This document shows positions 9,063 to 37,117 of a stretch of 55,149 bases of DNA, piece by piece (within the stretch, counting starts at the first letter, position 1; each line of letters begins with the position of its first letter). The DNA comes from a virus (Duplodnaviria > Heunggongvirae > Uroviricota > Caudoviricetes): IMG/VR virus record IMGVR_UViG_2531839531_000008. One strand, 5' to 3'. Position numbers and translations under genes: made by a program. The notes beneath the pieces are model-generated. The model had not been told where the DNA came from, ran no database searches, and saw only the letters and a list, made by a program, of their open reading frames with translations.

Positions 9063-9485
9063 GTGGCAAAAGTTTTTACACAAGAAGAGCGAGAAAAAAT
9101 TAAAGGGCAGGTTGTTGAACTCGTACGCCAGAGTGGGCGTGAGACGTTACGGCAACTGCAAGTCAAGACAGGTGCGACAAGATATCTGATGAGCGTTCTC
9201 GCAAGAGAGCTGGTTGCCAGCGGCGATGTATACAACTCTGGTTACGGGTTATTCCCGTCTGAACAGGCGCGTAAGGACTGGCAAAATGCCCGTAAAAAGC
9301 TCTCAAGGGCAAAGCTGAAGAAACCATCTGCGGTTGATCCGGACCTTATCTGGTCATTACCTGACGGAGAAATACGTCGCTACGACAGGCGTCAGAACAT
9401 AATCTGTCGCGAGTGCCGGAAGAGTGAGGTTATGCAGCGAGTGCTGGCGTTTTATCAGGGTAATTTTCAGGAGGTGATGGCGTGA
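9063..9485 (+). CDS. hypothetical nin-region protein
   Basis: 140 aa, GTG start with AGGAGG RBS. Confidence 0.5.
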   Translation: MAKVFTQEEREKIKGQVVELVRQSGRETLRQLQVKTGATRYLMSVLARELVASGDVYNSGYGLFPSEQARKDWQNARKKLSRAKLKKPSAVDPDLIWSLPDGEIRRYDRRQNIICRECRKSEVMQRVLAFYQGNFQEVMA

Positions 9486-19650: not shown

Positions 19651-20036
19651 CAGGCATTACAGCAGCCCTTCACTCTAAGGGGTTGCTGTAATGTGAGAAA
19701 TAAAAAACCGGTCACAGGGAGCAGCTACACAGAAGCGGCCGGCGAAGACCGCCAATACCACCCATGCATTGATGCAACATACTAATGACAATAGCCGCTA
19801 TTGATGTAAATGCAATGTTATGCATCGACGAAAATAAAAAACCGGCAGGGGAAATCCATTGAAGATTTGCCGGTGGCAAAAGAGGGCCATGTTTTTAACC
19901 TTAGTCGCAGAGTTACGGAGTGCAACTACGAATGCTGCCGGTATATGGCTGAATGGCGTTTCAATGATGTACGTCATCTTATCTGTAAATGTTAATGACA
20001 AACGCTCTCATTTGTGCGGGTCCTTCCGGTGGGGTG

Positions 20037-20116
20037 GCCTGCCACGGGGCGGGAGCGTCGCGGAAAAAGGCTAGTTTTTGAAATTTTATTCGTCATCACC
20101 ACCACTGTAATAGATT
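20037..20116. other. cos region of prophage (cosN about 20066-20077 plus flanking cosB-like sequence)
   Basis: CCACG-GGGCGGGAGCGT-CGCGG resembles lambda cosN ACG-GGGCGGCGACCT-CGCGG as recalled; lies just upstream of terS. Confidence 0.6.
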
Positions 20117-20232: not shown

Positions 20233-20727
20233 ATGGATCGAGAGTTAAAAAATCTGACGCTGAATATCAGTCAACTGGCGGCACTGTCAGGTGTACATCG
20301 CCAGACTGCTGCGGCAAGGCTGCAAAATCTACCCGTTGCAGGGGGGCATGAAAGCAACCTCAAGCTTTATCGGGTGGTTGATATTGTGTCGGCATTTCTG
20401 GCATTGCCACCGCCGGTTGCAGAAGGCGAAATGGACGCGCATGAGCGCAAAGCCTGGTATCAGTCTGAACGTGAGCGTCTTAAGTTCGAACAGGAAACGG
20501 CACAACTCATTCCGGCCAGTGATGTCAGACGGGAGTTTGCCATCTGGGCAAAAGCGGTCGTGCAGGTGCTGGAGACATTACCGGATATTCTGGAACGTGA
20601 CTGCGGTCTGCAGCCTGCCGCTGTGAGCCGTGTTCAGTCCATTATTGATGATCTGCGCGATCAGATAGCCCTGCGGGTGACTGAAGCAGGTGCGGATGAT
20701 GAGGAGGAATTACAGCAGGAGGAGTAA
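20233..20727 (+). CDS. terminase small subunit (Nu1/Noh-like)
   Basis: 164 aa, N-terminal wHTH-like, TAATG coupling to terL, immediately downstream of cos. Confidence 0.75.
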   Translation: MDRELKNLTLNISQLAALSGVHRQTAAARLQNLPVAGGHESNLKLYRVVDIVSAFLALPPPVAEGEMDAHERKAWYQSERERLKFEQETAQLIPASDVRREFAIWAKAVVQVLETLPDILERDCGLQPAAVSRVQSIIDDLRDQIALRVTEAGADDEEELQQEE

Positions 20728-21722
20728 TGCTGAATCAGGAAACCGCAAAGGCAGCACGAACCGATTCAGGTTATATCCTTCGCGCACCGAGACGAATGCG
20801 GGTTGCTGATGCCGTTGCTCAGTATATGCGGGTGCCCATGGGGGCAGGGAACTCAGTCCCGTGGGATCCGCTGGTGGCACCGTATGTTATTGAGCCGATG
20901 AACTGCCTGGCCTCGCGTGAATACGACGCAGTGATATTTGTTGGCCCGGCACGAACCGGCAAGACTATCGGCCTGATTGACGGCTGGGTGATTTACAACG
21001 TGATTTGCGATCCTGCTGATATGCTGATCATTCAGATGACGGAGGAAAAAGCCCGCGAACACTCCAAAAAACGACTCGCCAGAACGTTTCGCGTCAGCCC
21101 GGAAGTGGTCAGTCGCCTGAGTCCGAACAAAAATGACAACAACGTTTATGACAGAACATTCCTTGCTGGTAACTACCTGAAAATCGGCTGGCCGTCAGTC
21201 AATATCATGTCCTCATCAGATTATAAATGCGTCGCGCTGACGGATTATGACCGTTTTCCGGAAGATATTGATGGCGAGGGGGATGCTTTCTCTCTTGCCT
21301 CAAAACGTACCACCACATTTATGTCCAGCGGTATGACGCTGGTGGAGAGTTCCCCCGGCAGGGATGTGAAGGATGTGAAATGGCGACGGACTTCACCGCA
21401 TGAGGCTCCACCAACCACGGGGATCCTGTCGCTCTATAACCGTGGTGATCGCCGTCGCTGGTACTGGCCCTGTCCACACTGTGGTGAGTATTTTCAGCCC
21501 TGCGGCGATGTGGTTGCTGGTTTCCGTGATATTGCCGATCCCGTGCTGGCAAGTGAGGCGGCTTATATTCAGTGTCCTTCCTGTTCAGGACGGATTATGC
21601 CTGAACAAAAACGTGAGCTGAACGGACGTGGGGTCTGGTTGCGGGATGGTGAATCCATCAATGCGGATGGCAGTCGTTATGGTGATCCCCGACGCTCACG
21701 TATTGCGTCATTCTGGATGTAG
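20727..21722 (+). pseudogene. terminase large subunit (lambda gpA-like), N-terminal part, interrupted by satellite insertion
   Basis: 331 aa matching gpA N-terminal ATPase region incl. PCPHCGE motif; ends at TAG created at insertion junction. Confidence 0.8.
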
Positions 21723-21725
21723 GGT
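21713..21725. repeat. left direct repeat / att core of inserted satellite (CTGGATGTAGGGT)
   Basis: same 13-mer with one mismatch at 32312-32324. Confidence 0.6.
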
Positions 21726-21883
21726 ACATTTCTTACCTGTTTTTATGTTCTGGTGTCGTTTTATAGTCTTTTCAATGAGTTGTGATTTTTTGAGTTTCCT
21801 CTCTTTACTTGATAATGAGTTAGTTTATCGCTTGTTATCGACTTGAATGGACTACATGACGGACTAAAAAATGAGGGCGACAG

Positions 21884-23122
21884 ATGTCGGTAAAGCCATT
21901 AACCGTGACTGAAGTTAAGGGGATGAAACCACGTGAAAGGGACTATGCCGTTTATGATGGGTTCGGTTTATTGCTGAATGTGAGTAAAGCAGGTGGGAAA
22001 GTGTGGCGTTTCCGTTATAGCCATCCGATAACGAAGAAACGGCAGACATACACGATAGGGCGTTTTCCTGAATTCTCACTCGCGGAAGCACGGGAAGTAC
22101 GTGATGAACTTCGGCGAATGATTGCGCGTGGAGTTGATCCAGTGACAGAGAAGAAAAATCGTAAAATTGAGATGGCGCTAAAAAATCTACAGACATTTGA
22201 AGTCGTTGCTAATGCATGGTTCGCTTTTAAAAAAGGATCGGAGTTGAGGAAACCTACGTTGTATAATATCGAATATGAAGTATATAAGTATCTTGTTCCT
22301 TTCTTTGGTAAATACAGCATAGATAAAATTACAGCACCATTAGCAATTAAGACACTGGATGCCGTATCTGATAAAAACGCGCTGCAAAAAAAATTAATAT
22401 CAAGATTAAATGAAATCATGAATTACGCTGTAAATTGTGGCGCATTGAAAATAAATCCATTGCTTAAAATAAAGACAGCATTCACTGGAAAGAAAAATAA
22501 ATTATTAGCCGCGTTACCTATAGAAAGATTACCTGAATTTCTGAGCTGGTGGGATAGTGTGCCTCATAAGTATCAAATAGCTCACAATGCGCTTTTATTC
22601 CAGATATTGACAATGGTCAGGCCAGGTGAGGCGATTAAAGCAGAGTGGCCCGAGATTGATTTTGATTCTGGCTTGTGGATTATCCCCGCGCATAAAATGA
22701 AATGCCATCGTGAACATGTTGTGCCTCTCTCATCACAGGCTATTAGAATCCTAAGAACAATGCAGGAAATAAAAAGAGGGCGTTATATATTTTTTTCCTC
22801 CAGAACAAAAGATGCTCCTATGGGAAAGAATACTATCAATACCCCAATTGCTGCCAGCAAGTTCAAAGGGATTGTAACGTTACACGGTTTTCGTTCGATG
22901 TGGAGTACGCTTTTAAATGAGGAGGGTTTTAACCCTGATGTTATTGAGGCTGCATTAGCACATAAAAGTGGTGATAAAATAAGAGATATTTATAATAGAA
23001 CTACTTATTTAGAACAACGCAAAATTATGATGCAATGGGTAGGAGATTTTTTTGATGAGGCGAGAAAAGGGGTAATTAATAGATCCGGTGGTAAGAAAGG
23101 TTTGAGAATAGTAAATGGTTGA
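21884..23122 (+). CDS. int: P4-type tyrosine integrase (DUF4102 arm domain)
   Basis: 412 aa; N-terminus LT..E..G.KP...DY.V.DG.GL.L.V...G.K.WRFRY typical of P4 Int family; adjacent to left junction. Confidence 0.9.
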   Translation: MSVKPLTVTEVKGMKPRERDYAVYDGFGLLLNVSKAGGKVWRFRYSHPITKKRQTYTIGRFPEFSLAEAREVRDELRRMIARGVDPVTEKKNRKIEMALKNLQTFEVVANAWFAFKKGSELRKPTLYNIEYEVYKYLVPFFGKYSIDKITAPLAIKTLDAVSDKNALQKKLISRLNEIMNYAVNCGALKINPLLKIKTAFTGKKNKLLAALPIERLPEFLSWWDSVPHKYQIAHNALLFQILTMVRPGEAIKAEWPEIDFDSGLWIIPAHKMKCHREHVVPLSSQAIRILRTMQEIKRGRYIFFSSRTKDAPMGKNTINTPIAASKFKGIVTLHGFRSMWSTLLNEEGFNPDVIEAALAHKSGDKIRDIYNRTTYLEQRKIMMQWVGDFFDEARKGVINRSGGKKGLRIVNG

Positions 23123-23134
23123 GGAGTTCAGCAA

Positions 23135-23338
23135 ATGAATACCAATGAAGATATTTTATTTACTAAAGACGTAATGAAAATTTTGCGCTATGGGGCAATG
23201 AGCGCATTCATCAATTTCTGGAAAGATGAAAATAATGGTTTTCCTCAACCGTTCAGAATTGGGCGGCGGCATACCTGGCACCGCAGAGATGTAGAGGCAT
23301 GGTTAGATAAACAACGAGAACAGGCCAATCCCCACTAA
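23135..23338 (+). CDS. alpA: AlpA-family transcriptional regulator
   Basis: 67 aa small HTH protein directly after P4-type int. Confidence 0.65.
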   Translation: MNTNEDILFTKDVMKILRYGAMSAFINFWKDENNGFPQPFRIGRRHTWHRRDVEAWLDKQREQANPH

Positions 23339-23351
23339 TAATATCTTTCAT

Positions 23352-23378
23352 ACCCCGCACGCAATGCGGGGTTTTTTG
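23352..23378 (+). terminator. intrinsic terminator after alpA
   Basis: ccccgca-cgcaa-tgcgggg hairpin followed by TTTTTT. Confidence 0.6.
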
Positions 23379-23396
23379 TATGTGAGGTAAAAAACG

Positions 23397-23978
23397 ATGA
23401 ATAAAAATATTGCCGTGACGGGCAAGGGGTACGCTCGTTCAGTAAAAAAATTCTGCGATATTCGTGATCTTGTCGTTCTGCGCTTTGATGGCGTGGATGT
23501 TCGTGTGGTGTATCTGAACGGCGATCCGTGGTTTGTTGCAAAGGATGTTTGTGAAGCTCTGGAAATAAGCAACTCACGCGATGCTCTAAAAGCTCTGGAT
23601 GTGGATGAGAAGAATACCGTCGCTTTAAGCTACGGTATTCGCGGAAATCCAAATCATAGCGTCGTTTCTGAATCTGGTTTTTACAAGCTGATCGCCAGAA
23701 GTCGCAAAGCTGTTACTCCTGGCACGTTCGCCCATCGTTTCAGTAACTGGGTATTCAGGAATGTGATACCAGGTATCAGAAAAACGGGGGCTTATGGTAT
23801 CCCGTGGGGTGCATTACAGGATTTTTCCCGCCGTAAAGAGCAATATCAAATAAGTGCCAGCGAGAAGGGGAGGGAGCTACAGGCATGTAAGCGCAAAAAG
23901 CGTGAGCTGGAGGAAGAAGAAAAAAGGCTGATACGTGAATACCAGCCTGAGTTTTACTTTGGTGAGCGTATTCAGTAA
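23397..23978 (+). CDS. BRO-N domain protein (antirepressor-like)
   Basis: 193 aa; N-terminal BRO-N-like segment, lysine/glutamate-rich C-terminus. Confidence 0.6.
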   Translation: MNKNIAVTGKGYARSVKKFCDIRDLVVLRFDGVDVRVVYLNGDPWFVAKDVCEALEISNSRDALKALDVDEKNTVALSYGIRGNPNHSVVSESGFYKLIARSRKAVTPGTFAHRFSNWVFRNVIPGIRKTGAYGIPWGALQDFSRRKEQYQISASEKGRELQACKRKKRELEEEEKRLIREYQPEFYFGERIQ

Positions 23979-24370
23979 CCACACGCGGTGTTGATTATAC
24001 GGTACATCGTGTTGACCGGGAAGCTACCCACCAGCAAGGCAAAATCTTCTGCTAAAAAATGACATATGACCAGTCGTCCGGAAAGCATGAAATTTTACAA
24101 AAATGGAAAATGAAGATTTTTATTGTGCTGGTGGGTAAAAACAAAAAGCGCCCCGTTGCCGGAGCGCCCTTGCGAACAATTAACCTACTGCGCAAAAAAT
24201 GAATCAGTGCAGTGGGATTATATCAACCGTGTAGCGAAGCGCCACAATTGCCGGATAACAGGCAAAACAAAGGCCACCCGCTACGGTGGCCCCTCGACAC
24301 AAGCTACACGTTATCCCCAACGCATGAGCATTACCAACAATGCCACATTTGCGGCTGGTGGGCAATGTGA

Positions 24371-24559
24371 TCAGTCAGATTTGGTTCGTTCCAAGGTTTG
24401 CAACGAGAGTTTTTTCCTGCGCTCTTTAAGGAATTTCTCAAGAGCAAACGAACAAGGTGCGAATCTTTCTGATTCATGCTCTATCTTTCTGCGCCGTCTT
24501 TTCCGTGCCGGTGATAATGTTTTGGTCAATTCTTTATCGGTCATTGTGTTGTCCTGCAT
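24371..24559 (-). CDS. hypothetical small basic protein
   Basis: 62-aa ORF; terminator-like hairpin plus T-run on minus strand near 24270-24300. Confidence 0.35.
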   Translation of the reverse strand: MQDNTMTDKELTKTLSPARKRRRRKIEHESERFAPCSFALEKFLKERRKKLSLQTLERTKSD

Positions 24560-24601
24560 AGCAATGCGCCGTAATACCTTACACCACGGCGCTGGTGATG
24601 G

Positions 24602-24907
24602 TTATTCCTGCTCTTTGGCCTTGCGACGCTGGAGTTCTTCACGCGCGACGGTGATGAGTTGCCCGATCTCCTCGGCTGCTTTGACTCCGATTTTTTCCAC
24701 CTGCGCCAGTGCATCGAGCGAAGAAACCAGGGGATTTTCTCCGCTTCCTTCTGCCTGGCGGCGGGCGATCTCACCGCGAACGGCTGTAATCACGAAAGCG
24801 GCTATTGTTTCCCCTTCCGTTTTCGAATTTTCCATTTCCTCGATTACATCATGGGGGAAGCGGATATTTTTCATTTGCGATCTGCTGTTGATATTTCCTG
24901 TTGCCAT
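24602..24907 (-). CDS. hypothetical protein, candidate satellite regulator
   Basis: 101 aa; divergent from rightward operon; intergenic region 24908-25103 holds GTGTGTA/TGTACA repeat motifs. Confidence 0.45.
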   Translation of the reverse strand: MATGNINSRSQMKNIRFPHDVIEEMENSKTEGETIAAFVITAVRGEIARRQAEGSGENPLVSSLDALAQVEKIGVKAAEEIGQLITVAREELQRRKAKEQE

Positions 24908-25103
24908 CAGAATGTCCGGTTATTTTGAGGTGTGCATACATTACATCAAAAGGTGTGTAAATAAAACACTTGACACTGTAGCGCACTTAAATTTAATCTG
25001 TACACACACCAATGATTGTGGTGTATGTACAGCAAAGCCCCGCAGTGCTGGAACACATGCAGGGCTTCTAACCACCAACGATAGCGAAAGTATCGAGGTA
25101 GCT

Positions 25104-25310
25104 ATGAGAAATTATACCAGACACCCGCAAGGGCGGGACTCGTACAACCTGAATAAATACATCTGGCGTTTTATCGCCCTGAGCACGGCACAACCGCGCG
25201 TGATTACCATTGAGGCCACCAGCGAACAGGAAGCGCGTCAGCAATCTCCTGATGGCTGCGTGATGGTATTCGCTGCCCGTATTCGCCAGGGGGAAACCTA
25301 TGCACAATAA
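25104..25310 (+). CDS. hypothetical small protein
   Basis: 68 aa with GAGG RBS; first gene of rightward operon. Confidence 0.4.
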   Translation: MRNYTRHPQGRDSYNLNKYIWRFIALSTAQPRVITIEATSEQEARQQSPDGCVMVFAARIRQGETYAQ

Positions 25311-25536
25311 AACCACACCGGACGCAGCCGCCGAAGCCATCAAAACGCTGATGCACGCGCTGATTGATATTTCTGTTATCGCAGACAAGGCGCATAAGCA
25401 CGCCACCAGCGAAACAGAATATGCCGGGGCTTTCGTTCCTCACTCACTGGCTCTTATGCAATTTAGTGCTGATATGGCGCTGAATGAGGCAGGCAAAATT
25501 CTTACCGCAGATATTCAGGGGGTGCACCATGCATGA
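25300..25536 (+). CDS. hypothetical small protein
   Basis: 78-aa ORF overlapping neighbours by a few nt. Confidence 0.35.
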   Translation: MHNKTTPDAAAEAIKTLMHALIDISVIADKAHKHATSETEYAGAFVPHSLALMQFSADMALNEAGKILTADIQGVHHA

Positions 25537-25756
25537 TGACTGTTATCTTAAATCAATGAGCCATGCAGAAAACGCACTGACTAACAGTGAATGTTTGAGG
25601 CAAATATTTCTTATCTGGCTTGATGGTTTAAGTGATGCGCCGGAAGATGAGCGTGAATCTAATCTTGCTGGTGCGTTTATTTCATTACTCGATACGGTAA
25701 TCGTCGAATTAAATAAAGCGATCGAAATTCACGATAAAAAAATAAACGCGGAATAA
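25529..25756 (+). CDS. hypothetical small protein
   Basis: 75 aa from internal ATG. Confidence 0.35.
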   Translation: MHDDCYLKSMSHAENALTNSECLRQIFLIWLDGLSDAPEDERESNLAGAFISLLDTVIVELNKAIEIHDKKINAE

Positions 25757-25761
25757 AAACC

Positions 25762-26049
25762 ATGAAAAATAAAAATTCTGGCTTTACTGCCAGCGGCCCC
25801 GCTCGGCCTGAAATCCGCCCCGGCGATATTTTCCGGGATAACTATGGCGGCACGGTAACGATAAAAGGCGTGGCAGAACGGCGCATCACTTACCGCCGTG
25901 ATGGCTACGAATATGACTGCGTGATGCCTGTTTATCAGTTCCGGCGTGATTTCACGCTGGTGGGCCATCGTAAAGCCGTAAATCAGAAACGTGCAGCAAG
26001 TCATATCCGCAAAATTCGTGAAATGCTGGTCGCAGGGGGTAAAAAATGA
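25762..26049 (+). CDS. hypothetical small protein
   Basis: 95-aa ORF, ATGA-coupled to primase gene. Confidence 0.4.
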   Translation: MKNKNSGFTASGPARPEIRPGDIFRDNYGGTVTIKGVAERRITYRRDGYEYDCVMPVYQFRRDFTLVGHRKAVNQKRAASHIRKIREMLVAGGKK

Positions 26050-27860
26050 AACTGGCACCGAACGTAAAACAGCAGTCACGCGGCATAAAACACAAAGAAA
26101 CAGAAGTCATTATTTTTGCGGGTAGTGATGCCTGGTCACACGCAAAACAATGGCAGGAACATGACGCGCGTATGGCCGGAGATAATGAGCCTCCTGTGTG
26201 GCTTGGGGAGCAGCAGTTATCTGAACTGGATAAGCTGCAAATTGTGCCGGAAGGCAGAAAATCCGTGCGCATATTCAGGGCCGGATATCTTGCGCCAGTA
26301 ATGATAAAGGCGATTGGTCAGAAGCTGGCGGCGGCAGGCGTACAGGATGCAAATTTTTATCCTGAGGGTATGCACGGCCAGGAGGTGCAGAACTGGCGCG
26401 AATATCTGGCCCGTGAGCGCCAGAATCTTTCTGATGGTCTGGTGATTCAGCTTCCTGTTAAGAAAAAAACAGAAGACAGCGCCGCACCACTGGCGCTTAA
26501 CCAGATGGGAGCAAGCCAGCGCGGCGAAGTTCTCCTGGCACATTATGGCGGTGAACTGGCGATTCATGCCGACTCTGACACTGTTCACCATTACAACGGC
26601 GTTGTATGGGAGCCGATTCAGGATAAAGAGTTACAGCGTGCTATGGCGCAGATTTTCATTGATGCGGAGATCAGCTATTCGCAGAACGCCATTAAATCGG
26701 CGGTCGATACCATGAAGTTAAGTTTGCCTGTAATGGGGAATACAGCCCGTAACCTGATTGGATTCAGTAACGGGGTATTTGATACCAGAACAGGTAATTT
26801 TCGGGAGCATAACAAAAACGACTGGTTGTTAATTGCCAGTGAATTACCTTTCAGCCCACCAGCAGAGGGGGAAACGCTGGCAACACATGCGCCGAATTTC
26901 TGGAAGTGGTTACGCCGCTCGGTGGCAGAGAATGACCGCAAGACGGATCGCGTGCTGGCTGCATTATTCATGGTGCTGGCGAACCGGTACGACTGGCAGT
27001 TATTCATTGAGGTAACAGGTCCAGGGGGAAGTGGTAAAAGCGTGATGGCGGAGATTTGCACTATGCTGGCGGGTAAGGCCAACACAGTATCGGCAAGCAT
27101 GAAGGCGCTGGAAGATGCAAGGGAACGCGCGTTAGTGGTTGGCTTTTCGCTGATTATCATGCCGGATATGACCCGCTACGCTGGTGATGGCGCAGGAATT
27201 AAGGCCATTACAGGCGGTGACAAGGTGGCAATCGACCCGAAGCATAAAGCCCCCTACTCAACACGCATTCAGGCGGTCGTGCTGGCGGTGAACAATAACG
27301 CCATGTCATTCAGTGACCGCAGCGGGGGGATCTCACGTCGTCGGGTGATATTCAATTTTTCGGAGGTTGTACCGGAGAACGAGCGCGACCCCATGCTGGC
27401 AGAAAAAATAGAAGGAGAGCTGGCGGTTGTGATTCGCCATCTGCTTACTCGTTTTTCTGACCAGGACGAAGCTAAACGCCTGCTGTATGAGCAGCGGAAA
27501 TCAGAAGAAGCTCTGGTGATAAAACGCGAGGGCGATTCGCTGGTGGACTTCTGTGGCTATCTCATGTCGTCGGTAATGTGTGATGGTCTGTTAGTGGGTA
27601 ATGCCGAAATTATTCCGTTCAGTCCGCGCAGGTATCTTTATCACGCCTATCTGGCATATATGAGGGCACACGGATTCGGTAAACCTGTAACACTGACGCG
27701 CTTCGGTAAAGATATGCCGGGGGCAATGGCGGAATATGGCAGGGAGTATATAAAACGGAAAACGAAGCACGGTTTGCGTTCAAATGTGACACTGACAGAG
27801 GATTCAGAAGACTGGATGCCATCATGTGCATCGGTCACAAATGACGACAGCAAAAATTAA
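26046..27860 (+). CDS. satellite replication protein: primase/SF3-helicase family (P4 alpha C-terminal-like)
   Basis: 604 aa; Walker A GPGGSGKS; followed by iteron array. Confidence 0.8.
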   Translation: MKLAPNVKQQSRGIKHKETEVIIFAGSDAWSHAKQWQEHDARMAGDNEPPVWLGEQQLSELDKLQIVPEGRKSVRIFRAGYLAPVMIKAIGQKLAAAGVQDANFYPEGMHGQEVQNWREYLARERQNLSDGLVIQLPVKKKTEDSAAPLALNQMGASQRGEVLLAHYGGELAIHADSDTVHHYNGVVWEPIQDKELQRAMAQIFIDAEISYSQNAIKSAVDTMKLSLPVMGNTARNLIGFSNGVFDTRTGNFREHNKNDWLLIASELPFSPPAEGETLATHAPNFWKWLRRSVAENDRKTDRVLAALFMVLANRYDWQLFIEVTGPGGSGKSVMAEICTMLAGKANTVSASMKALEDARERALVVGFSLIIMPDMTRYAGDGAGIKAITGGDKVAIDPKHKAPYSTRIQAVVLAVNNNAMSFSDRSGGISRRRVIFNFSEVVPENERDPMLAEKIEGELAVVIRHLLTRFSDQDEAKRLLYEQRKSEEALVIKREGDSLVDFCGYLMSSVMCDGLLVGNAEIIPFSPRRYLYHAYLAYMRAHGFGKPVTLTRFGKDMPGAMAEYGREYIKRKTKHGLRSNVTLTEDSEDWMPSCASVTNDDSKN

Positions 27861-27872
27861 ACTTATGGAATA

Positions 27873-28103
27873 ACTGTTCACCACTGTTCACCCTGTTATA
27901 AATATCTTTTATATCAGTACATTATAGGGTGAACAGTTATTTGTGAACTGTTCACCAAACTATTCACTGTTCACCTTTTTGATTATTTATTGAGCTTTAA
28001 GGGTGAACAGTGGTGAACAGTTGGTGAATAGTTTTTGTGAAACTATTCACCCCTTAACATTATGAATAAAAAGGGAAAATCTCAAAAGGTGAACAGGTGA
28101 AGG
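27873..28103. repeat. iteron array, probable satellite replication origin
   Basis: about 12 copies of CTGTTCACC / GGTGAACAG in both orientations in AT-rich DNA right after primase gene. Confidence 0.65.
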
Positions 28104-28147
28104 GTTAAAATGCAAAAATTTTATTTTATTGCTGTGAGGTAAAGCCT

Positions 28148-28393
28148 GTGACAACGAAGCACGCAAAAAAACCACAATCTCACGCCCTTGATTTGACAGA
28201 ACACTGGCTGAGGGTGGCGATAAAAATCATCGACCGCAACGCGGGAGAAGGGTACGCAAAAGCACATCCCGAACTGGTAAGCGCACTCATGACCACGGCA
28301 GCGGCAAACTTTGCCACGCTGACAGAACGGGAGATTGCCGAAGCGGAACAGGTGACAACCATCAACGTTAAAACCGGAGAGCAGACAGCATGA
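28148..28393 (+). CDS. hypothetical protein
   Basis: 81 aa, GTG start with GAGG RBS. Confidence 0.4.
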   Translation: MTTKHAKKPQSHALDLTEHWLRVAIKIIDRNAGEGYAKAHPELVSALMTTAAANFATLTEREIAEAEQVTTINVKTGEQTA

Positions 28394-28812
28394 CAGCACA
28401 GATAGCAGCTTACGGGCGGCTGGTGGCTGACCCGCAGTTAAAGACCACCAGCAAAGGGACACAAATGGCGATGGCGAGTATGGCGGTTCCCCTGCCGTGC
28501 AGCCAGGCCGATGACGGAACGGCGACGATGTGGTTATCCGTCCTGGCGTTTGGCAGACAGGCCGATGCACTGGCAAAGCACCACAAAGGCGAACTGGTGA
28601 GCGTGGCGGGTAACATGCAGGTAAGCCAGTGGACAGGCCAGAACGGCGAAACGCGGCAGGGCTGGCAGGTTATCGCAGACAGCGTAATCAGTGCGCGAAC
28701 GGCGCGACCGGGCGGCAAAAAAGGCCAGCAGGGCCAGGCTACTGACGCGCTGAACAGAGCAAAACAACTGGCGGGGAATGATGATCCGTACGGGGATAAC
28801 ATACCGTTTTAA
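28390..28812 (+). CDS. SSB-like single-stranded DNA-binding protein
   Basis: 140 aa; Gly/Gln-rich linker and acidic tail ending DNIPF, cf. E. coli SSB tail DDDIPF. Confidence 0.55.
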   Translation: MTAQIAAYGRLVADPQLKTTSKGTQMAMASMAVPLPCSQADDGTATMWLSVLAFGRQADALAKHHKGELVSVAGNMQVSQWTGQNGETRQGWQVIADSVISARTARPGGKKGQQGQATDALNRAKQLAGNDDPYGDNIPF

Positions 28813-28827
28813 GCAACGAGTAACAGA

Positions 28828-28850
28828 AGCCGGAGCAATCCGGCTTTTTT
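28828..28850 (+). terminator. intrinsic terminator after SSB-like gene
   Basis: agccgg-agcaat-ccggct hairpin followed by TTTTTT. Confidence 0.6.
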
Positions 28851-28852
28851 AT

Positions 28853-28924
28853 GGGTCCTTCCTGTGGAGCGGCCTTGCCACGGGGCGGGAGCGGCGCGGA
28901 AAACGGCTGATTTTTGCATTTTCA
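28853..28924. other. satellite cos copy 1 (cosN about 28883-28894)
   Basis: about 85 percent identical by eye to prophage cos element; cosN GGGCGGGAGCGG. Confidence 0.55.
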
Positions 28925-29410
28925 AGGCGGCGGCAGCATGTGCGGTAATTTATTGATAATTAAAAGTTATTTCTCTTTTCACCTGTACAATATTTTTTTC
29001 TCCCTGTCATTAGACCAGTTTTCAATTAATTGAAATATATAAATAAATCTGATTTTCACCTGCCGGATGGAGTTGCCTACACCAATTCAGGCCAGATTTT
29101 TGCGTCAGAATCTGATTAATCTGTTTTTGTGATAGAAATTTGTTTATCTACCACTTATATAGATCAATAATGTGCATAGTTTAGGCAGACATAGGGGGCT
29201 TACTGTGAGTTGTATTAATAACCTGAACACAGGCGACATCAGAGGCGGATCCGTTCATCTGGATGCGCAAACTGTTATGCGCCTTAAGCAATACAGAATT
29301 GACCATGTGAAGAATCACCCTGAACAACCGTTACCAGGTGTGGCGCAGATTGTCAGACATGCCGTAAACGCCTGGCTTAATCAGAATGGTTTGGCATCGG
29401 GGAATAAGCA

Positions 29411-31327
29411 ATGAATCGCTGGTACACCATTAAAGCGGCGGATGTTCGCGGGACGGCGGAGATATCCATCTATGAGGAAATTGGTGGCTTTGGTATTACC
29501 GCGAAGCAGTTCACGGAAGATCTGAAAGTCCTTGGCGATGTTTCACATATCAATCTGAGGATCCATTCACCAGGTGGCGACGTGTTTGAAGGTATCGCCA
29601 TCTATAACCTGCTACGGAATCATCCGGCAGACATTACGGTTTATATAGATGGCGTGGCGGCTTCAATGGCTTCGGTCGTTGCAATGGCTGGCGATCGCGT
29701 TGTTATGCCGGAGAACGCCATGATGATGATCCATAAGCCGTGGGGTATCTCTGGCGGAAATGCTGGCGATATGCGTGATTATGCTGATTTGCTGGATAAG
29801 GTGGAAACCGTGTTAATCCCTGCTTATGCCAGAAAAACGGGCAAATCAGCACAGGAAATTGCCACCATGCTGGAAGATGAAACCTGGATGGACGGGAAAG
29901 AATGCCTTAAGCACGGTTTTGCTGATGAATTGTTGCCATCTGTCAGAGCAATGGCGCGAATTGAATCGAAACGTACAGGAGATTTTTTACATATGCCGGA
30001 AACCATTAAGGGAATGATTACCCCGCCGAAATCACAGGCAAAAAACACCATTACAGGCGACCAGGAGCGCATTAACGGCATTAAAGAAATTTTTAGCGTG
30101 TTCGGCAACCAGTACGACGGGATCAAAATGTCGTGCCTTGAAGATGCGTCCTGTACGCTGGAAATGGCCCGTGAACGCCTGCTTAAAGAAATGGGTAAGA
30201 ACCACACACCAACCAATAAAAATATTCCGTCTCATATCTATGCCGGAAACGGGAACATAACAGGCGATGCGATTCGCCAAGGGCTTTATTCCCGTCTTGG
30301 GTATGAGCGTCCTGAGCGGGGAAATCCTTACGCGATGATGAGCCTTTTTGAAATGGCCCAGGCATCACTAACTGATCGTGGTATCAGTGTTGGCGGTTTT
30401 TTAAATCGCTCGCAGGTCGTTAATGCAGCTTTCACACACAGCAGCAGCGATTTTTCTCATATTCTGGCTGGCGGTGCTGAAAAATCAGTGCTGAAAGGCT
30501 GGCAGGACAGCGGCGAAACGTTCCAGAAATGGACGCGTACCGGTTCGCTTTCAAACTTTCATGAAGCAAAACGCGTTGGCCTGAATGGCTTTTCAAAACT
30601 AGATAAAGTACCGGAAGGTGCGGAATATAAATACATCACCACCAGCGATAAAGGTGTACCTATTGCGCTGGCCACGTACGGGAATATTTTTTCCGTTACC
30701 CGTCAGGCCATTATCAACGATGACCTGACCCAGTTAACTACAATCCCCATGGCGATGGGACGCGCAGCCGCCAGAACAGTTGGCAATCTGGTTTATCTCC
30801 TGTTAACCAGCAATGGCAAGTTTACGGATGGTAAAGCGTTATTCCATGCCGATCATAAAAATCTTATTGCGAAGGATATGGACATGGTGGGGCTTGATGA
30901 AGCCCGTAAGCTGATGCGCCTCCAGGAAGACGCTAACGGCGATTCCCTGAATATTACCCCTGCTTTTGTTCTGGTCCCTGCCGCGCTGGAGTCTGCCGCA
31001 CATCGCGCCATTCTGTCATCGTCATCACTCTTTCCGGTTGGTAATGAGAGCACTCTCAATCAGAACCCGGGCATCATTAACGTGGTGAAAGATATGGCAG
31101 AAGTAATTGTTGAGCCACGTCTTGATAAGGCCAATAGCAAGGAATGGTATGTAGCCGCAGCTAAGGGGATGGACACGATAGAGGTCGCTTATCTTGACGG
31201 TATTGATACGCCATATCTTGAGGAGCAGGAGGGCTTTACTGTTGATGGTGTCGCATGGAAGGTGCGCATTGATGCAGGTGTCGCGGCCCTCGACTATCGC
31301 GGATTACTGAAATCGAGTGGAGCATGA
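29411..31327 (+). CDS. satellite prohead protease (ClpP/S49-like) fused to major capsid protein
   Basis: 638 aa; N-terminal protease region HSPGGDVFEG...AASMASV; C-terminal HK97-fold capsid-like region; paralog of prophage gene 35159-37117. Confidence 0.75.
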   Translation: MNRWYTIKAADVRGTAEISIYEEIGGFGITAKQFTEDLKVLGDVSHINLRIHSPGGDVFEGIAIYNLLRNHPADITVYIDGVAASMASVVAMAGDRVVMPENAMMMIHKPWGISGGNAGDMRDYADLLDKVETVLIPAYARKTGKSAQEIATMLEDETWMDGKECLKHGFADELLPSVRAMARIESKRTGDFLHMPETIKGMITPPKSQAKNTITGDQERINGIKEIFSVFGNQYDGIKMSCLEDASCTLEMARERLLKEMGKNHTPTNKNIPSHIYAGNGNITGDAIRQGLYSRLGYERPERGNPYAMMSLFEMAQASLTDRGISVGGFLNRSQVVNAAFTHSSSDFSHILAGGAEKSVLKGWQDSGETFQKWTRTGSLSNFHEAKRVGLNGFSKLDKVPEGAEYKYITTSDKGVPIALATYGNIFSVTRQAIINDDLTQLTTIPMAMGRAAARTVGNLVYLLLTSNGKFTDGKALFHADHKNLIAKDMDMVGLDEARKLMRLQEDANGDSLNITPAFVLVPAALESAAHRAILSSSSLFPVGNESTLNQNPGIINVVKDMAEVIVEPRLDKANSKEWYVAAAKGMDTIEVAYLDGIDTPYLEEQEGFTVDGVAWKVRIDAGVAALDYRGLLKSSGA

Positions 31328-31333
31328 CAACAA

Positions 31334-31356
31334 GGGCGGCGAAAGCCGCCTTTTTT
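31334..31356 (+). terminator. intrinsic terminator after satellite capsid gene
   Basis: gggcggc-gaaa-gccgcc hairpin followed by TTTTTT. Confidence 0.6.
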
Positions 31357-31358
31357 AC

Positions 31359-31433
31359 GGGTCCTCCCGGTGGGGTGGCCTGCCACGGGGCGGGAGCGGC
31401 GCGGAAAAAGGCTAGTTTTTGCATTTTCATTCA
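31359..31433. other. satellite cos copy 2 (cosN about 31388-31399)
   Basis: near-identical to prophage cos element; homology continues into terS homolog. Confidence 0.6.
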
Positions 31434-31583
31434 TCATCATCATCTTTTCAATGCATTGAATTTAAACGAATTTTATTTTTAGTATGTTAATTTTGCGTGT
31501 TTTTTGGTCAACATATAACGCACTTTATAACGCTTTTTGAAAAGGTGTTCGCAAGATGCATGTTTAAAACGTCAGGAGGGGAT

Positions 31584-32069
31584 ATGGATCGTGAGTTGAA
31601 AAATCTGATGCTGAACATTAACCAACTGGCGGCAATAGCAGGTATATGTCGTCAGACTGCGGCGGCAAGGCTGAAAAACATCCAGCCAGCCGGAGGACAT
31701 GACAAGCTGAAACTCTATCGGGTGACTGACATTCTGACCTGTTTTCTTGATCTTCCCGTTCCGGCATCACTGGAAGAAATGGAGCCACATGACCGCAAGG
31801 CTTGGTATCAGTCTGAACGTGAGCGCCTCAAGTTCGAACAGGAAACGGCGCAACTCATACCCGCCGATGATGTGCGAAAAGAGATGGCTATATGGGGGGA
31901 AATCGTAAGCGAGGAACTGGCAAAACTCCCCAATATTCTGGCACGTGATGCAGGGCTTAAACCGATGGCAGTAAACAGAGTGCAGTCAATTATTGACGAT
32001 TTGTGTAATCAGATTATCAGCCGGATGGTAAAAAATGACGCAGTGAATGAGGATGTAAAACAGGCATGA
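31584..32069 (+). CDS. satellite terminase small subunit homolog
   Basis: 161 aa, roughly 60 percent identical by eye to prophage TerS; AGGAGG RBS; preceded by cos copy. Confidence 0.7.
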   Translation: MDRELKNLMLNINQLAAIAGICRQTAAARLKNIQPAGGHDKLKLYRVTDILTCFLDLPVPASLEEMEPHDRKAWYQSERERLKFEQETAQLIPADDVRKEMAIWGEIVSEELAKLPNILARDAGLKPMAVNRVQSIIDDLCNQIISRMVKNDAVNEDVKQA

Positions 32070-32311
32070 TAATGACCGACGCCGTGATCCGCCGTGCCAC
32101 CGGAATCAGACTACCAGAAGGTAAACAGAAGGCCACGCAGTCGGGCAGCGTCATCGTGTTAATGCATGGCGGCGTATTCAGCTTTTAATTAATATTGCTG
32201 CCTTTTTCTTTTTTTTATCGCTTAGGCAGGTACTAAATCTTGGACTATGTGAATGGGGTTACAACTAAATAGTACCTTATAATCATTTGGTTACCTTTTA
32301 TTTACTTCTTC

Positions 32312-32324
32312 CTGGATGGAGGGT
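32312..32324. repeat. right direct repeat / att core of inserted satellite (CTGGATGGAGGGT)
   Basis: matches 21713-21725 with one mismatch; lies at resumption of terL reading frame. Confidence 0.6.
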
Positions 32325-33428
32325 CCGGCAGCTGCTTACCAGACACTCTCGCAACTCGTTTACAAACTGCTTACTGCAGAACAGGAATACGAGACAACCG
32401 GAAGTGAAGAAACACTCAGGGCGGTTATCAATACCGACTGGGGATTACCTTATCTTCCCCGCGCCAGCATGGAGCAACGAAAAAGTGAACTGCTTGAGCA
32501 GCGGGCAGAGCCAGTTCTTTCCCGCAGTGTGCCGGATGGCGTTAATTTCCTTGTGGCGACAGTGGATGTGCAGGCGGGACGTCATCGCCGTTTTGTGGTT
32601 CAGGTAACGGGCTATGGCAGCCGTGGCGAACGCTGGATTATTGATCGTTACAACATCACGCAGTCATTGCGCGGTGACAGCGACGGGGAGAGCCAGCGAA
32701 TTGATCCGGCCAGCTATCCGGAAGACTGGGATGTCCTGCTGACGGATGTTTTTCATAAAAGCTGGCCGCTGGCCTCCGATCCTTCTCAACAAATGCGACT
32801 GATGGCAATGGCGGTGGACTCCGGCGGTGAAGACGGGGTCACTGATAATGCCTATAAATTCTGGCGTCGTTGCCGTCGTGATGGCCTTGGTAAACGTATT
32901 TACCTGTTTAAGGGCGACAGCATCCGGCGCGCAAAACTGATCACCCGTACATTCCCTGATAACACCGGACGAACGGGCCGACGGGCGCAGGCCGCAGGTG
33001 ATGTGCCGCTCTGGCTTCTTCAGACGGATGCACTGAAAGACCGGGTGAATAACGCGTTATGGCGTGACTCGCCAGGTCCAGGCTATGTGCATTTCCCTGA
33101 CTGGCTGGGGAGCTGGTTTTACGACGAACTGACGTATGAAGAGCGGAGCAGTGACGGGAAATGGAGTAAGCCGGGTCGCGGTGCCAACGAAGCTTTTGAC
33201 CTGATGGTGTATGCCGAGGCTCTGGTCATTCTGCATGGATACGAAAAGATCCGCTGGCCGGATGCACCGGAGTGGGCGAGCCGGGAAACCTGGCTGGAGT
33301 GTGTCCAGGACAGTACTGAACCGTCATCCTCACCGGAACCGGTATCCACGCCTGTTAAAAAACAAAAACGGAAGAAAACAGTAACTGACGATGTTAACCC
33401 CTGGCTGACTTCCGGAGGATGGTTATGA
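32316..33428 (+). pseudogene. terminase large subunit (gpA-like), C-terminal part downstream of satellite insertion
   Basis: 370 aa matching gpA C-terminal nuclease region; joins in frame with 20727-21719. Confidence 0.8.
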
Positions 33429-33637: not shown

Positions 33638-35145
33638 TGGCAATTCTTGATGATGTGATTGGCGTTTTTTCACCAGGATGGAAAGCGGCAAGGCTGCGTT
33701 CCCGTGCGGTGATCCAGGCTTATGAGGCCGTAAAAACGACGCGGACACACAAAGCCCGGCGGGAAAACCGAACTGCCGACCAGTTAAGCCAGTACGGGGC
33801 CGTGTCGTTACGTGAGCAGGCCCGTTACCTTGATAACAACCACGATCTGGTTATTGGTGTATTTGACAAGCTGGAAGAACGGGTGGTGGGGAAAAACGGA
33901 ATTATTGTCGAGCCACATCCGGTATTACGCAATGGAGCCATTGCCCGTGATCTGGCAGCGGAGATTCGCACCCGATGGAGTGAATGGTCTGTCAGTCCGG
34001 AAGTCACCGGGCAGTTTACCCGTCCGATGCTGGAACGTCTGATGCTGCGTACCTGGCTGCGCGATGGTGAGGTGTTTGCCCAGATGGTTTCCGGGCGCAT
34101 AAACAGCCTGACGCCTTCTGCCGGTGTTCATTTCTGGCTGGAGGCGCTCGAGCCGGACTTTATTCCCATGACCAGTGATGAGAGCAACAGGCTGAATCAG
34201 GGCGTGTTTGTTGATGACTGGGGGCGTCCCGAAAAATATCTGGTGTATAAAAGCCGTCCCGTATCCGGACGGCAGATGGAAACCAAAGAAGTGGATGCAG
34301 AGCGAATGCTGCATCTTAAATTTGTTCGCCGTCTGCACCAGATGCGCGGGACGTCTTTGTTGTCCGGTGTGTTGATCCGCCTCAGTGCCCTGAAAGAGTA
34401 TGAAGATTCTGAGCTGACTGCAGCAAGGATCGCCGCTGCTCTGGGGATGTACATCCGCAAAGGCGACGGACAGAGCTATGAACCGGATGGTAATGGCAGC
34501 AAGGATAAGGAACGCGAGCTTACCATTCAGCCAGGCATTATTTACGACGATCTGAAACCCGGCGAAGAAATCGGAATGGTGAAGTCGGATCGCCCCAATC
34601 CTAATCTTGAAACTTTTCGTAATGGTCAGTTGCGTGCAGTGGCGGCTGGCAGTCGTCTGAGTTTTTCCAGTACTGCGCGCAACTATAACGGCACTTACAG
34701 CGCCCAGCGTCAGGAGCTGGTTGAATCCACTGATGGCTACCTGATCCTGCAGGACTGGTTTATTGGTGCCGTCACCCGCCCGATGTACCGTGCCTGGCTG
34801 AAACAGGCTGTGGCATCCGGTGTTATCAGGCTACCCCGCGATCTTGACCGTTCTTCACTGTATACCGCGGTGTATTCCGGACCGGTGATGCCGTGGATTG
34901 ACCCTGTTAAGGAGGCTGAGGCCTGGAAAATCCAGATTCGTGGTGGAGCGGCGACAGAATCAGACTGGGTACGTGCTGGTGGTCGTAATCCGGATGATGT
35001 CAAACGTCGGCGCAAGGCCGAAATTGATGAAAACCGCAAGCTGGATCTGGTATTTGATACCGATCCGGCCAGTGATAAAGGAGGTAGCAGTGCCGCAACG
35101 AAACGACAGGAGCCGCAGCACACCAACAACCAGTCCGAAGAATAA
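33637..35145 (+). CDS. portal protein (lambda gpB-like)
   Basis: 502 aa from ATG overlapping W stop; position after terL/W. Confidence 0.8.
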   Translation: MAILDDVIGVFSPGWKAARLRSRAVIQAYEAVKTTRTHKARRENRTADQLSQYGAVSLREQARYLDNNHDLVIGVFDKLEERVVGKNGIIVEPHPVLRNGAIARDLAAEIRTRWSEWSVSPEVTGQFTRPMLERLMLRTWLRDGEVFAQMVSGRINSLTPSAGVHFWLEALEPDFIPMTSDESNRLNQGVFVDDWGRPEKYLVYKSRPVSGRQMETKEVDAERMLHLKFVRRLHQMRGTSLLSGVLIRLSALKEYEDSELTAARIAAALGMYIRKGDGQSYEPDGNGSKDKERELTIQPGIIYDDLKPGEEIGMVKSDRPNPNLETFRNGQLRAVAAGSRLSFSSTARNYNGTYSAQRQELVESTDGYLILQDWFIGAVTRPMYRAWLKQAVASGVIRLPRDLDRSSLYTAVYSGPVMPWIDPVKEAEAWKIQIRGGAATESDWVRAGGRNPDDVKRRRKAEIDENRKLDLVFDTDPASDKGGSSAATKRQEPQHTNNQSEE

Positions 35146-35158
35146 TTCCTGGTTCAGG

Positions 35159-37117
35159 ATGCAGGCAGGTCACCAGAGTGACGCGGATATTTATATTTAT
35201 GACGAGATTGGTTTCTGGGGTGTTACGGCGAAGCAGTTTATCAGTGATCTGAATGCACTGGGCGATATCACCCACATTAATCTCCATATCAATTCACCGG
35301 GTGGCGATGTCTTTGAAGGCATCGCCATTTTTAATGCACTGAAAACACATGGTGCGTCCATTACCGTTTATGTCGACGGAGTGGCGGCATCAATGGCGTC
35401 GGTCATTGCGATGGTGGGAAACCCGGTCATTATGCCGGAAAACACTTTCATGATGATTCATAAACCATTTGGCTTTACGGGCGGTGATGCGGAGGACATG
35501 CGCACCTATGCCGACCTGCTCGATAAAGTTGAGGCGGTTCTCTTACCCGCTTATGCACAGAAAACCGGGAAAACCACCGATGAAATTGCTGCCATGCTGG
35601 CGGATGAGACCTGGATGTCCGGAGCCGAATGTCTGGCTCATGGATTTGCTGACCAGGTGACGCCAGCCGTTAAGGCAATGGCATGTATTCAGTCAAAACG
35701 TACAGAGGAATTTAAAAAGATGCCGGAATCTATTCGAAACATGATTACTCCGCCACGCAACAGTGCTCCACGCGTACCGGATGATGAACCAGCAGCCCCC
35801 CGGACGCCAGTGCAGGCAGCAGCACCCGTGGTGGATGAAAACAGCATCCGTGCGCAGGTACTGGCAGAGCAAAAAGCGCGTGTAAACGGTATTAATGATC
35901 TGTTTGCCATGTTTGGCGGGCGTTATCAGGCGCTGCAGGCTCAGTGCCTTGCCGATCCTGAGTGTTCGCTGGAGCAGGCCCGCGAGAAGCTGTTGAACGA
36001 GATGGGGCGAGAGTCCACGCCATCCAATAAAAATACCCCGGCTCATATTTATGCCGGTAACGGTAATTTTGTGGGGGACGGGATCCGCCAGGCGCTGATG
36101 GCGCGTGCCGGATTTGAAAAAACCGAACGTGATAATGTCTACAACGGGATGACCCTGCGTGAATATGCCCGTATGTCACTGATTGAACGGGGTATTGGGG
36201 TTTCCAGTTATAACCCGATGCAGATGGTCGGTGCGGCGTTCACACACAGTACGTCTGACTTCGGTAATATTCTGCTGGATGTTGCGAACAAAGCCATTCT
36301 GCAGGGCTGGGAAGATGCCCCTGAAACCTATGAACAGTGGACGCGGAAAGGCCAGTTGTCTGATTTTAAAATTGCCCATCGTGTGGGTATGGGGGGCTTC
36401 AGTGCTCTGCGTCAGGTGCGTGAAGGGGCGGAATATAAATACGTCACCACCGGAGATAAACAGGCCACTATTGCACTGGCGACCTATGGCGAGCTGTTCA
36501 GTATCACCCGTCAGGCCATTATCAATGATGATCTGAATATGCTGACCGATGTCCCGATGAAGCTGGGCCGTGCGGCGAAATCCACTATTGCCGATCTGGT
36601 TTATGCCATTCTGACGTCTAACCCGAAAATCTCCACAGATAATGTAAGCCTGTTCGATAAAGCGAAACATGCAAACGTACTGGAGAGCGCTGCAATGGAC
36701 GTGGCATCGCTGGATAAAGCCCGCCAGTTGATGCGCGTTCAGAAAGAGGGGGAGCGTCATCTGAATATTCGTCCTGCGTTCGTACTGGTACCGACGGCGA
36801 TGGAATCTGTTGCTAACCAGGTCATTCGCTCCTCAAGTGTCAAGGGGGCTGACATTAACGCCGGTATTATTAACCCGGTGAAAGATTTTGCGACCGTTAT
36901 TGCAGAGCCTCGTCTTGATGATAACAGCCAGACCACCTTCTACCTGGCTGCGTCAAAAGGCTCCGATACGATTGAAGTGGCTTATCTCAACGGTGTGGAT
37001 ACGCCATATATTGATCAGATGGAGGGCTTCAGTGTGGATGGCGTGACAACGAAAGTGCGTATTGACGCCGGTGTCGCGCCAGTTGATCACCGCGGTCTGG
37101 TGAAATGTACGGCGTAA
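35159..37117 (+). CDS. prohead protease (ClpP/S49-like) fused to major capsid protein
   Basis: 652 aa; same architecture as satellite gene 29411-31327; after portal. Confidence 0.8.
   Translation: MQAGHQSDADIYIYDEIGFWGVTAKQFISDLNALGDITHINLHINSPGGDVFEGIAIFNALKTHGASITVYVDGVAASMASVIAMVGNPVIMPENTFMMIHKPFGFTGGDAEDMRTYADLLDKVEAVLLPAYAQKTGKTTDEIAAMLADETWMSGAECLAHGFADQVTPAVKAMACIQSKRTEEFKKMPESIRNMITPPRNSAPRVPDDEPAAPRTPVQAAAPVVDENSIRAQVLAEQKARVNGINDLFAMFGGRYQALQAQCLADPECSLEQAREKLLNEMGRESTPSNKNTPAHIYAGNGNFVGDGIRQALMARAGFEKTERDNVYNGMTLREYARMSLIERGIGVSSYNPMQMVGAAFTHSTSDFGNILLDVANKAILQGWEDAPETYEQWTRKGQLSDFKIAHRVGMGGFSALRQVREGAEYKYVTTGDKQATIALATYGELFSITRQAIINDDLNMLTDVPMKLGRAAKSTIADLVYAILTSNPKISTDNVSLFDKAKHANVLESAAMDVASLDKARQLMRVQKEGERHLNIRPAFVLVPTAMESVANQVIRSSSVKGADINAGIINPVKDFATVIAEPRLDDNSQTTFYLAASKGSDTIEVAYLNGVDTPYIDQMEGFSVDGVTTKVRIDAGVAPVDHRGLVKCTA

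Follow-up and report, generated by a model that had tools for sequence, protein, structure and literature searches.

A mirrored array of P4-type repeats downstream of pri-rep as the probable replication origin of a PICI integrated in a prophage terminase gene

In Gram-negative PICIs, the replication origin was described as part of a pri-rep-ori module, in which it lies immediately 3′ of pri-rep and is composed of two iteron sets flanking AT-rich DNA (PMC6092414). For EcCICFT073, a temperature-sensitive plasmid was replicated with pri-rep and the downstream region, but no longer after either of them had been deleted (PMC6092414). The Rep proteins of the SaPIs are self-loading helicases whose winged-helix domain binds iterons directly downstream of rep, with an AT-rich centre (PMC9371898).

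In the GenBank record of satellite phage P4, the octamer TGTTCACC is labelled "ori type 1 repeat" and is present in the ori (9310-9413) as well as in crr, which the record describes as "cis required region for replication" and places directly past the alpha gene. The P4 ori core consists of three repeats, one inverted repeat, an AT-rich segment and two repeats, with spacings of 10, 11, 22, 43 and 10. The alpha protein reportedly binds the type 1 repeats, and P4 replication requires both ori and crr.

The window analyzed here (the whole stretch of viral DNA, 55,149 nucleotides) contains an island of 10.6 kb (21720-32318). Its genes are arranged in the order P4-type integrase, alpA-like, Bro-N, DUF4222, pri-rep, the putative ori, 81-aa gene, SSB, ClpP-capsid and DUF1441 terS (Table 1). 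The island carries the five-component PICI set (PMC10085698) with a uniform direction of transcription, its size falls into the range of about 10-15 kb expected for such islands, and helper cos-like segments are present. An identification as a P4-like satellite was rejected, as the P4 genes sid, delta and psu are missing, in contrast to the alpA-like, capsid and terS genes and the helper cos that mark the island as a PICI. A cf-PICI, which the capsid gene and the relative vB_KppS-Ant had suggested, was rejected as well, since portal, terL and head-tail connector genes are all missing from the island itself. One feature of PICIs is a chromosomal att site that is never occupied by prophages; here the island lies within a prophage terL gene, which concerns the island and not the origin.

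The intergenic stretch between the 604-aa ORF and the 81-aa ORF comprises 287 bp (27861-28147). For this region, the original prediction had proposed a dense bidirectional array at 27873-28103, which could be confirmed to within a base: the array spans 27874 to 28103 and contains eight exact copies of CTGTTCACC/GGTGAACAG, two copies with one mismatch and two weaker ones. The core octamer of these repeats is TGTTCACC, found in eight exact and four degenerate copies in both orientations. With a count of 10 to 12 copies, the earlier figure of about a dozen is fair. The location in AT-rich noncoding DNA directly past a stop codon held too. The array begins 14 bp after the stop codon of the 604-aa gene, which ends at 27860, the next gene starts at 28148, and among the E. 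coli records listed no gene annotation covers the homologous segment. The array has an A+T content of 66%, whereas the upstream gene has 49% and the window 50%; in the three spacers of the array, it reaches 75-81%.

Only three exact copies were found outside the array in the whole window. With up to one mismatch allowed, 10 matches were observed in 228 bp, compared to approximately 0.05 expected from a total of 12.6 such matches across the whole window (Poisson P ~4e-20). Three loose matches were counted in the second-densest 250 bp of the window, and a scan of both the island and the whole window gave no second TGTTCACC cluster equivalent to crr.

Table 1. Coordinates of the repeats, spacers, genes and attachment sites in and around the array (positions of the window)
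Feature	Position	Strand	Remarks
Exact CTGTTCACC copies	starts 27874, 27884, 27948, 27967	+	
Exact copies read as GGTGAACAG	starts 27928, 28002, 28012, 28088	-	
One-mismatch CTATTCACC copies	28023 (-), 28043 (+)	-/+	
Two-mismatch copy	27960-27968	+	
Terminal partial copy GGTGAAGG	28096-28103	-	full repeat in aligned relatives
Left unit of putative origin	27874-27975		2 repeats, AT-rich spacer, 1 inverted, 3 repeats
Right unit of putative origin	28002-28103		3 repeats, 1 inverted, AT-rich spacer 28052-28087, 2 repeats
AT-rich spacer S1	27893-27927		80% A+T; candidate unwinding site
Central AT-rich spacer S2	27976-28001		26 bp, 81% A+T; candidate unwinding site
Pri-Rep gene	26046-27860	+	604 aa
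Coding region of winged-helix origin-binding domain	27531-27821	+	aa 496-592 of Pri-Rep
int	21884-23122		P4-type integrase
alpA-like regulator gene	23135-23338		
Small conserved gene	28148-28393	+	81 aa, PHROG 1231; after the origin in related islands
SSB gene	28390-28812	+	Pfam SSB, E 4e-16; same place in relatives
ClpP-capsid fusion gene	29411-31327		
terS-like gene	31497-32069		DUF1441
attL	21710-21723		
attR	32306-32321		

The repeats are grouped into two mirrored units, which are separated by the spacer S2. In the left unit, the octamers start at 27875 and 27885 (forward), 27928 (reverse) and 27949, 27961 and 27968 (forward), resulting in spacings of 10, 43, 21, 12 and 7. In the right unit, they start at 28002, 28012 and 28023 (reverse), 28044 (forward) and 28088 and 28096 (reverse), with spacings of 10, 11, 21, 44 and 8. 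S2 is also the centre of a 36-nt inverted repeat (I1). According to a nearest-neighbour stability scan, the least stable 25-mer of the region is located inside S1 (27896-27920), followed by the centre.

Both units correspond to the ori of P4. The right unit aligns locally to the P4 ori on the plus strand, and the left unit aligns over its full length to the P4 ori core in reverse complement, S1 corresponding to the 35-bp AT-rich segment that separates the iteron sets in P4. The octamer is identical, the 3-1-2 order is the same, and the spacings of 21 and 44 or 43 bp are similar to the 22 and 43 bp of P4. Using the array as a blastn query, the left half was also found to match a genuine P4-like satellite of another E. 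coli at the place of its ori (L007 2501-2607), between sid and a vis-like gene. By its repeat order and spacing, the array is therefore composed of two P4-type ori cores in a head-to-head arrangement, with 26 bp of AT-rich DNA between them. Further features common to P4 and the island are an SF3 helicase, a winged-helix domain, the lack of DnaA boxes and repeats located directly after the initiator gene. The earlier description as a P4-like rep-ori module agrees with these results, given the identical octamer, the collinearity of both halves with the P4 ori core and the alpha-type binding domain described below.

The main difference is that P4 possesses two separate cis elements, the ori approximately 4.5 kb away and crr after alpha, whereas the island has a single mirrored locus; in addition, no P4 type 2 repeats were seen in the island. 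The P4 mechanism is therefore not transferable unchanged. If two cis elements are required as in P4, both would have to lie within this single locus. The two head-to-head cores would plausibly combine at one short site the roles of the P4 ori and the distant crr, the second unit being the putative equivalent of crr.

As the cluster directly downstream of alpha in P4 is crr and not ori, the array might instead be a crr-like accessory or copy-control site, which titrates or handcuffs Pri-Rep while replication starts elsewhere in the island. A part of the right unit (28044-28101) indeed aligns with a P4 crr unit as well. This explanation was nevertheless considered unlikely, because the array is the only TGTTCACC cluster in the island, with no more than three loose matches in any other 250-bp stretch, and because both halves fit the full 3-1-2 pattern of the P4 ori core and not the crr pattern. 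Furthermore, the homologous region of EcCICFT073 together with pri-rep sufficed for plasmid replication (PMC6092414).

The EcCICFT073 origin could be located in CFT073 (L009 10000-10240) and is built from the repeats CTGTCTACC/GGTAGACAG. Its pattern is two forward repeats, AT-rich DNA, one reverse and three forward repeats, a spacer, a reverse set, one forward repeat, a spacer and two reverse repeats. The position 3′ of pri-rep, the mirrored 2-1-3/3-1-2 layout and the AT-rich spacers are thus common to both islands, as are a small gene and SSB downstream, a DUF4222 gene upstream and the unidirectional orientation of the genes from int. The original assignment to a PICI rep-ori module is supported by this match in layout and location to an experimentally validated origin (PMC6092414). 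The repeat sequence itself differs, being TGTTCACC in the window island and TGTCTACC in EcCICFT073. Differences were also found in the packaging genes (ClpP-capsid fusion and DUF1441 terS compared to capsid-like protein, decoration protein and PerC in EcCICFT073) and in the integration inside a prophage terL gene, unlike EcCICFT073.

The protein encoded upstream of the array, Pri-Rep, consists of an N-terminal Toprim-like domain (aa 1-135), D5_N, an SF3 helicase and a C-terminal origin-binding domain, with the Pfam domains D5_N, DUF5906 and Pox_D5. The Walker A motif GPGGSGKS is intact and the homologues are 584-608 aa in length, so that the ORF is full length. Residues 137-594 are 49.5% identical to P4 alpha. 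Residues 496-592 match PDB entry 1KA8 with a phmmer E-value of 3.4e-24, the solved structure of the winged-helix domain by which P4 alpha binds its origin (Yeo et al., 2002, cited in PMC2777425). This domain is 47% identical to that of P4 and 34% identical to that of EcCICFT073, and the helicase shows 50% identity to alpha compared to 45% to EcCICFT073; both are thus nearer to P4 alpha. In contrast, the first 135 residues are ~97% identical to those of EcCICFT073. Judged from these identities, Pri-Rep is a mosaic of a PICI-type N-terminal domain and a P4-alpha-like helicase and binding domain.

The earlier designation of the gene product as a primase-helicase could only be retained in part. 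The helicase is well founded (SF3, with the identity to alpha given above), but the label "primase" was not accepted, since it is based on a fold resemblance only and the sequence-family searches were empty. For the N-terminal 150 aa, no primase family was found in Pfam (E up to 10), NCBIfam or the PDB sequences, and the fold search gave a Toprim-like resemblance with a modest Z among generic Rossmann-like matches. The N-terminal 312 residues of P4 alpha form a DnaG-type primase (PMC2777425). This primase/zinc-finger region lacks a counterpart in Pri-Rep, and the domain of 135 residues in its place has no cysteine and no zinc finger. Without zinc finger and sequence-family match, self-priming by Pri-Rep is doubtful.

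The N-terminal domain (26046-26450) appears to be a swappable module, given its high identity to EcCICFT073 next to 34-45% for the rest of the protein. In database fragments, this Toprim-like domain is also fused to helicases of the RepA/AAA_25 type. The residues E20 and D28 are invariant in the domain, and D46 is nearly so. Upstream, the DUF4222 gene (25762-26049) overlaps the start of pri-rep by four bases, which was also found in EcCICFT073 and in the tRNA-Pro island of E. coli M7424. It occupies the position of the P4 gene cnr (ORF106, DUF5375), a copy-number regulator upstream of alpha, but belongs to a different family.

The binding domains that are paired with TGTTCACC arrays are 47-92% identical to that of the window. 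In a comparison that rests on a handful of alleles, the repeat sequence and the binding domain co-vary at the sequence level while position and layout stay fixed, which is the prediction for an initiator-origin pair.

The array could also be mainly a transcriptional operator for Pri-Rep or another regulator, with a secondary or absent origin role. Possible targets would be read-through from pri-rep or the genes further downstream, which encode the 81-aa protein, SSB, capsid and terS. Autoregulation is frequent among the initiators of iteron replicons, and with co-oriented flanking genes and no terminator a bound protein could act as a roadblock. The scan of 27600-28500 revealed neither a sigma-70-like promoter on the plus strand nor a terminator, and a single weak promoter-like site on the minus strand only. 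The missing promoter, the identity of the repeat to the P4 origin repeat and the matching origin-binding domain of the adjacent protein make a pure operator array very unlikely. The spacing and the AT-rich spacers are origin-like, and the co-variation of repeat and domain extends to EcCICFT073, whose array is a proven origin. Some autoregulatory side effect of the array may exist.

In addition, no DnaA box, IHF consensus or GATC site was found within 27800-28200. Together with the missing plus-strand promoter and terminator, this is consistent with a DnaA-independent origin across which the unidirectional transcription of the island continues.

Among 5,426 complete E. coli genomes, the array was found in 671 (about one in eight). 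The segment is present at an identity of at least 90% in approximately 590 genomes, and the layout recurs after the homologous gene in vB_KppS-Ant, an induced element of 16.5 kb, and in three other E. coli islands. The repeat cores contain 78% invariant columns compared to 44% in the rest (Fisher p 1e-7), three of the four relatives being mutually close and not independent. Although the island lies inside a prophage gene and many elements of E. coli prophage regions are defective, it is highly improbable that the array is merely the non-functional remnant of a decayed island caught within a prophage, given the full-length Pri-Rep ORF with its intact Walker A motif, eight perfect repeats out of twelve, the wide conservation of the segment and the open integrase, alpA-like, SSB, capsid and terS genes.

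The region 27700-28400, comprising the end of pri-rep, the array, the 81-aa gene and the start of SSB, is 99.7% identical to that of an island in E. coli M7424 (L001 8577-18231). That island adjoins tRNA-Pro and has another packaging module (capsid-like protein, decoration protein and a different terS). A nearly identical replication module in such a different island indicates that the rep-ori block is exchanged between islands.

In more distant relatives, the arrangement is partly retained. In Serratia phage Scapp, a third repeat forms a bidirectional array after an alpha-like gene with 38% identity. In Pasteurella phage Pmp7 (primase 34% identical), no array was found downstream of the gene, only a terminator-like hairpin; an origin directly after the gene is therefore not universal in the wider family.

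The SaPIs share the SF3 helicase with a C-terminal winged-helix domain, and the helicase core of Pri-Rep matches that of the SaPI5 protein PriRep5 (7OLA, E 1e-10). They also contain short iterons next to the 3′ end of rep, six to twelve in number, with an AT-rich centre and opposite orientations around it. In contrast, the SaPI iterons have a length of 5-6 nt and are unrelated in sequence to TGTTCACC, the binding domains have no sequence similarity, and the host lineage and regulation (Stl repressor, divergent transcription) are different.

With the iteron plasmids (R6K, pPS10, RK2, F), the locus shares a repeat array beside a region of AT-rich DNA for unwinding, as well as an adjacent initiator gene. 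The plasmid iterons are direct repeats of 17-22 bp, used with initiators of the Rep_3/TrfA type, usually DnaA boxes and the host DnaB/DnaC, whereas the array has repeats of 8-9 bp in both orientations, a D5/SF3 helicase as initiator and no DnaA box. An assignment to the Rep_3/TrfA iteron-plasmid class was therefore rejected on repeat length, orientation, initiator type and DnaA boxes.

Taken together, the array is very probably the replication origin of the 10.6-kb PICI. Although unannotated so far, it is typical of the Gram-negative PICI origins, a known class that is itself P4-like. By homology, the island may also replicate autonomously. With the repeat, the spacing and the binding domain all in common, the link to P4 is, as far as the sequences are concerned, tighter than stated in the PICI literature found. 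The TGTTCACC repeat is absent from the supplementary material of the 2018 PICI paper (PMC6092414), and a full-text literature search pairing the octamer with "iteron" retrieved no paper within the searchable texts.

For such an origin, the following course of replication initiation can be proposed. After island induction, the C-terminal winged-helix domain of Pri-Rep would bind the TGTTCACC repeats. Since the repeats within a set are about one helical turn apart and the sets face each other, two helicase hexamers could assemble around the spacers of 75-81% A+T. An AT-rich spacer would then melt, the three spacers being the candidate sites. The SF3 helicase would load itself without DnaA, DnaB or DnaC, and the single strands would be coated by the SSB of the island. 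Primers could be provided by the Toprim-like N-terminal domain or by the host DnaG, and the host DNA polymerase III would copy the excised circle in both directions.

With respect to the integration site, the terL gene of the lambdoid prophage (gpA family) is split into 20727-21722 and 32316-33428. In silico removal of the island resulted in a terL ORF of 701 aa without internal stop, and the restored junction is 100% identical to intact E. coli terL genes (1,464 genomes, at least 80% cover). The occupied junction was found in 16 of the 5,426 complete genomes. The integrated island should disable the packaging enzyme of its prophage, and the prophage that carries the island may be its helper.

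A segment of approximately 80 nt in the prophage (20020-20085), located about 150-200 bp upstream of the small-terminase gene, is probably the cos region. The island contains two similar segments with the same orientation, one at 28843-28924 (after SSB) and one at 31348-31429 (just before the terS-like gene). These island copies have 78% identity to each other over 82 nt and an exact 26-mer in common, from which the helper copy deviates by one base. Two cos-like sites at a distance of 2.5 kb are unusual for one small element. The island also duplicates prophage genes, namely ClpP/capsid (29411-31327 compared to 34898-37117) and DUF1441 terS (31497-32069 compared to 20233-20727). Based on this similarity, the capsid and terS copies of the island look like hijacking tools derived from this helper type. 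Furthermore, three tRNA genes (Met, Arg-TCG and Arg-TCT) were found at 16883-17132 in the late-gene regulatory region of the prophage. Stx-converting and related lambdoid phages also carry tRNA genes at such a place.

The analysis assigns a function to an unannotated segment of 230 bp, which roughly one complete E. coli genome in eight contains, and marks the most likely start of satellite copying. It adds to the known class the exact repeat and spacing of P4, a PICI origin interpretable as the P4 ori core duplicated in mirror image, and a mosaic initiator. Its sequence relationships suggest a transfer of replication modules among satellite families, and also that different satellites sharing a cell might interfere with each other through origin recognition. 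The pairing of TGTTCACC and TGTCTACC with their binding domains represents a specificity pair for origin swaps and for compatible satellite-based vectors.

The exact P4 octamer and a binding domain that is nearer to P4 alpha than to other PICI alleles make mutual origin recognition possible. We therefore propose, tentatively, that P4-like satellites and TGTTCACC PICIs recognise each other's origins and, as a related and equally tentative idea, that the double core is a fusion of ori and crr. Such a fusion would explain why one locus is found in the PICI and two in P4. If mutual recognition is true, each satellite could fire, titrate or block the replication of the other in a shared cell, so that two satellite families regarded as independent would cross-activate each other or be incompatible.
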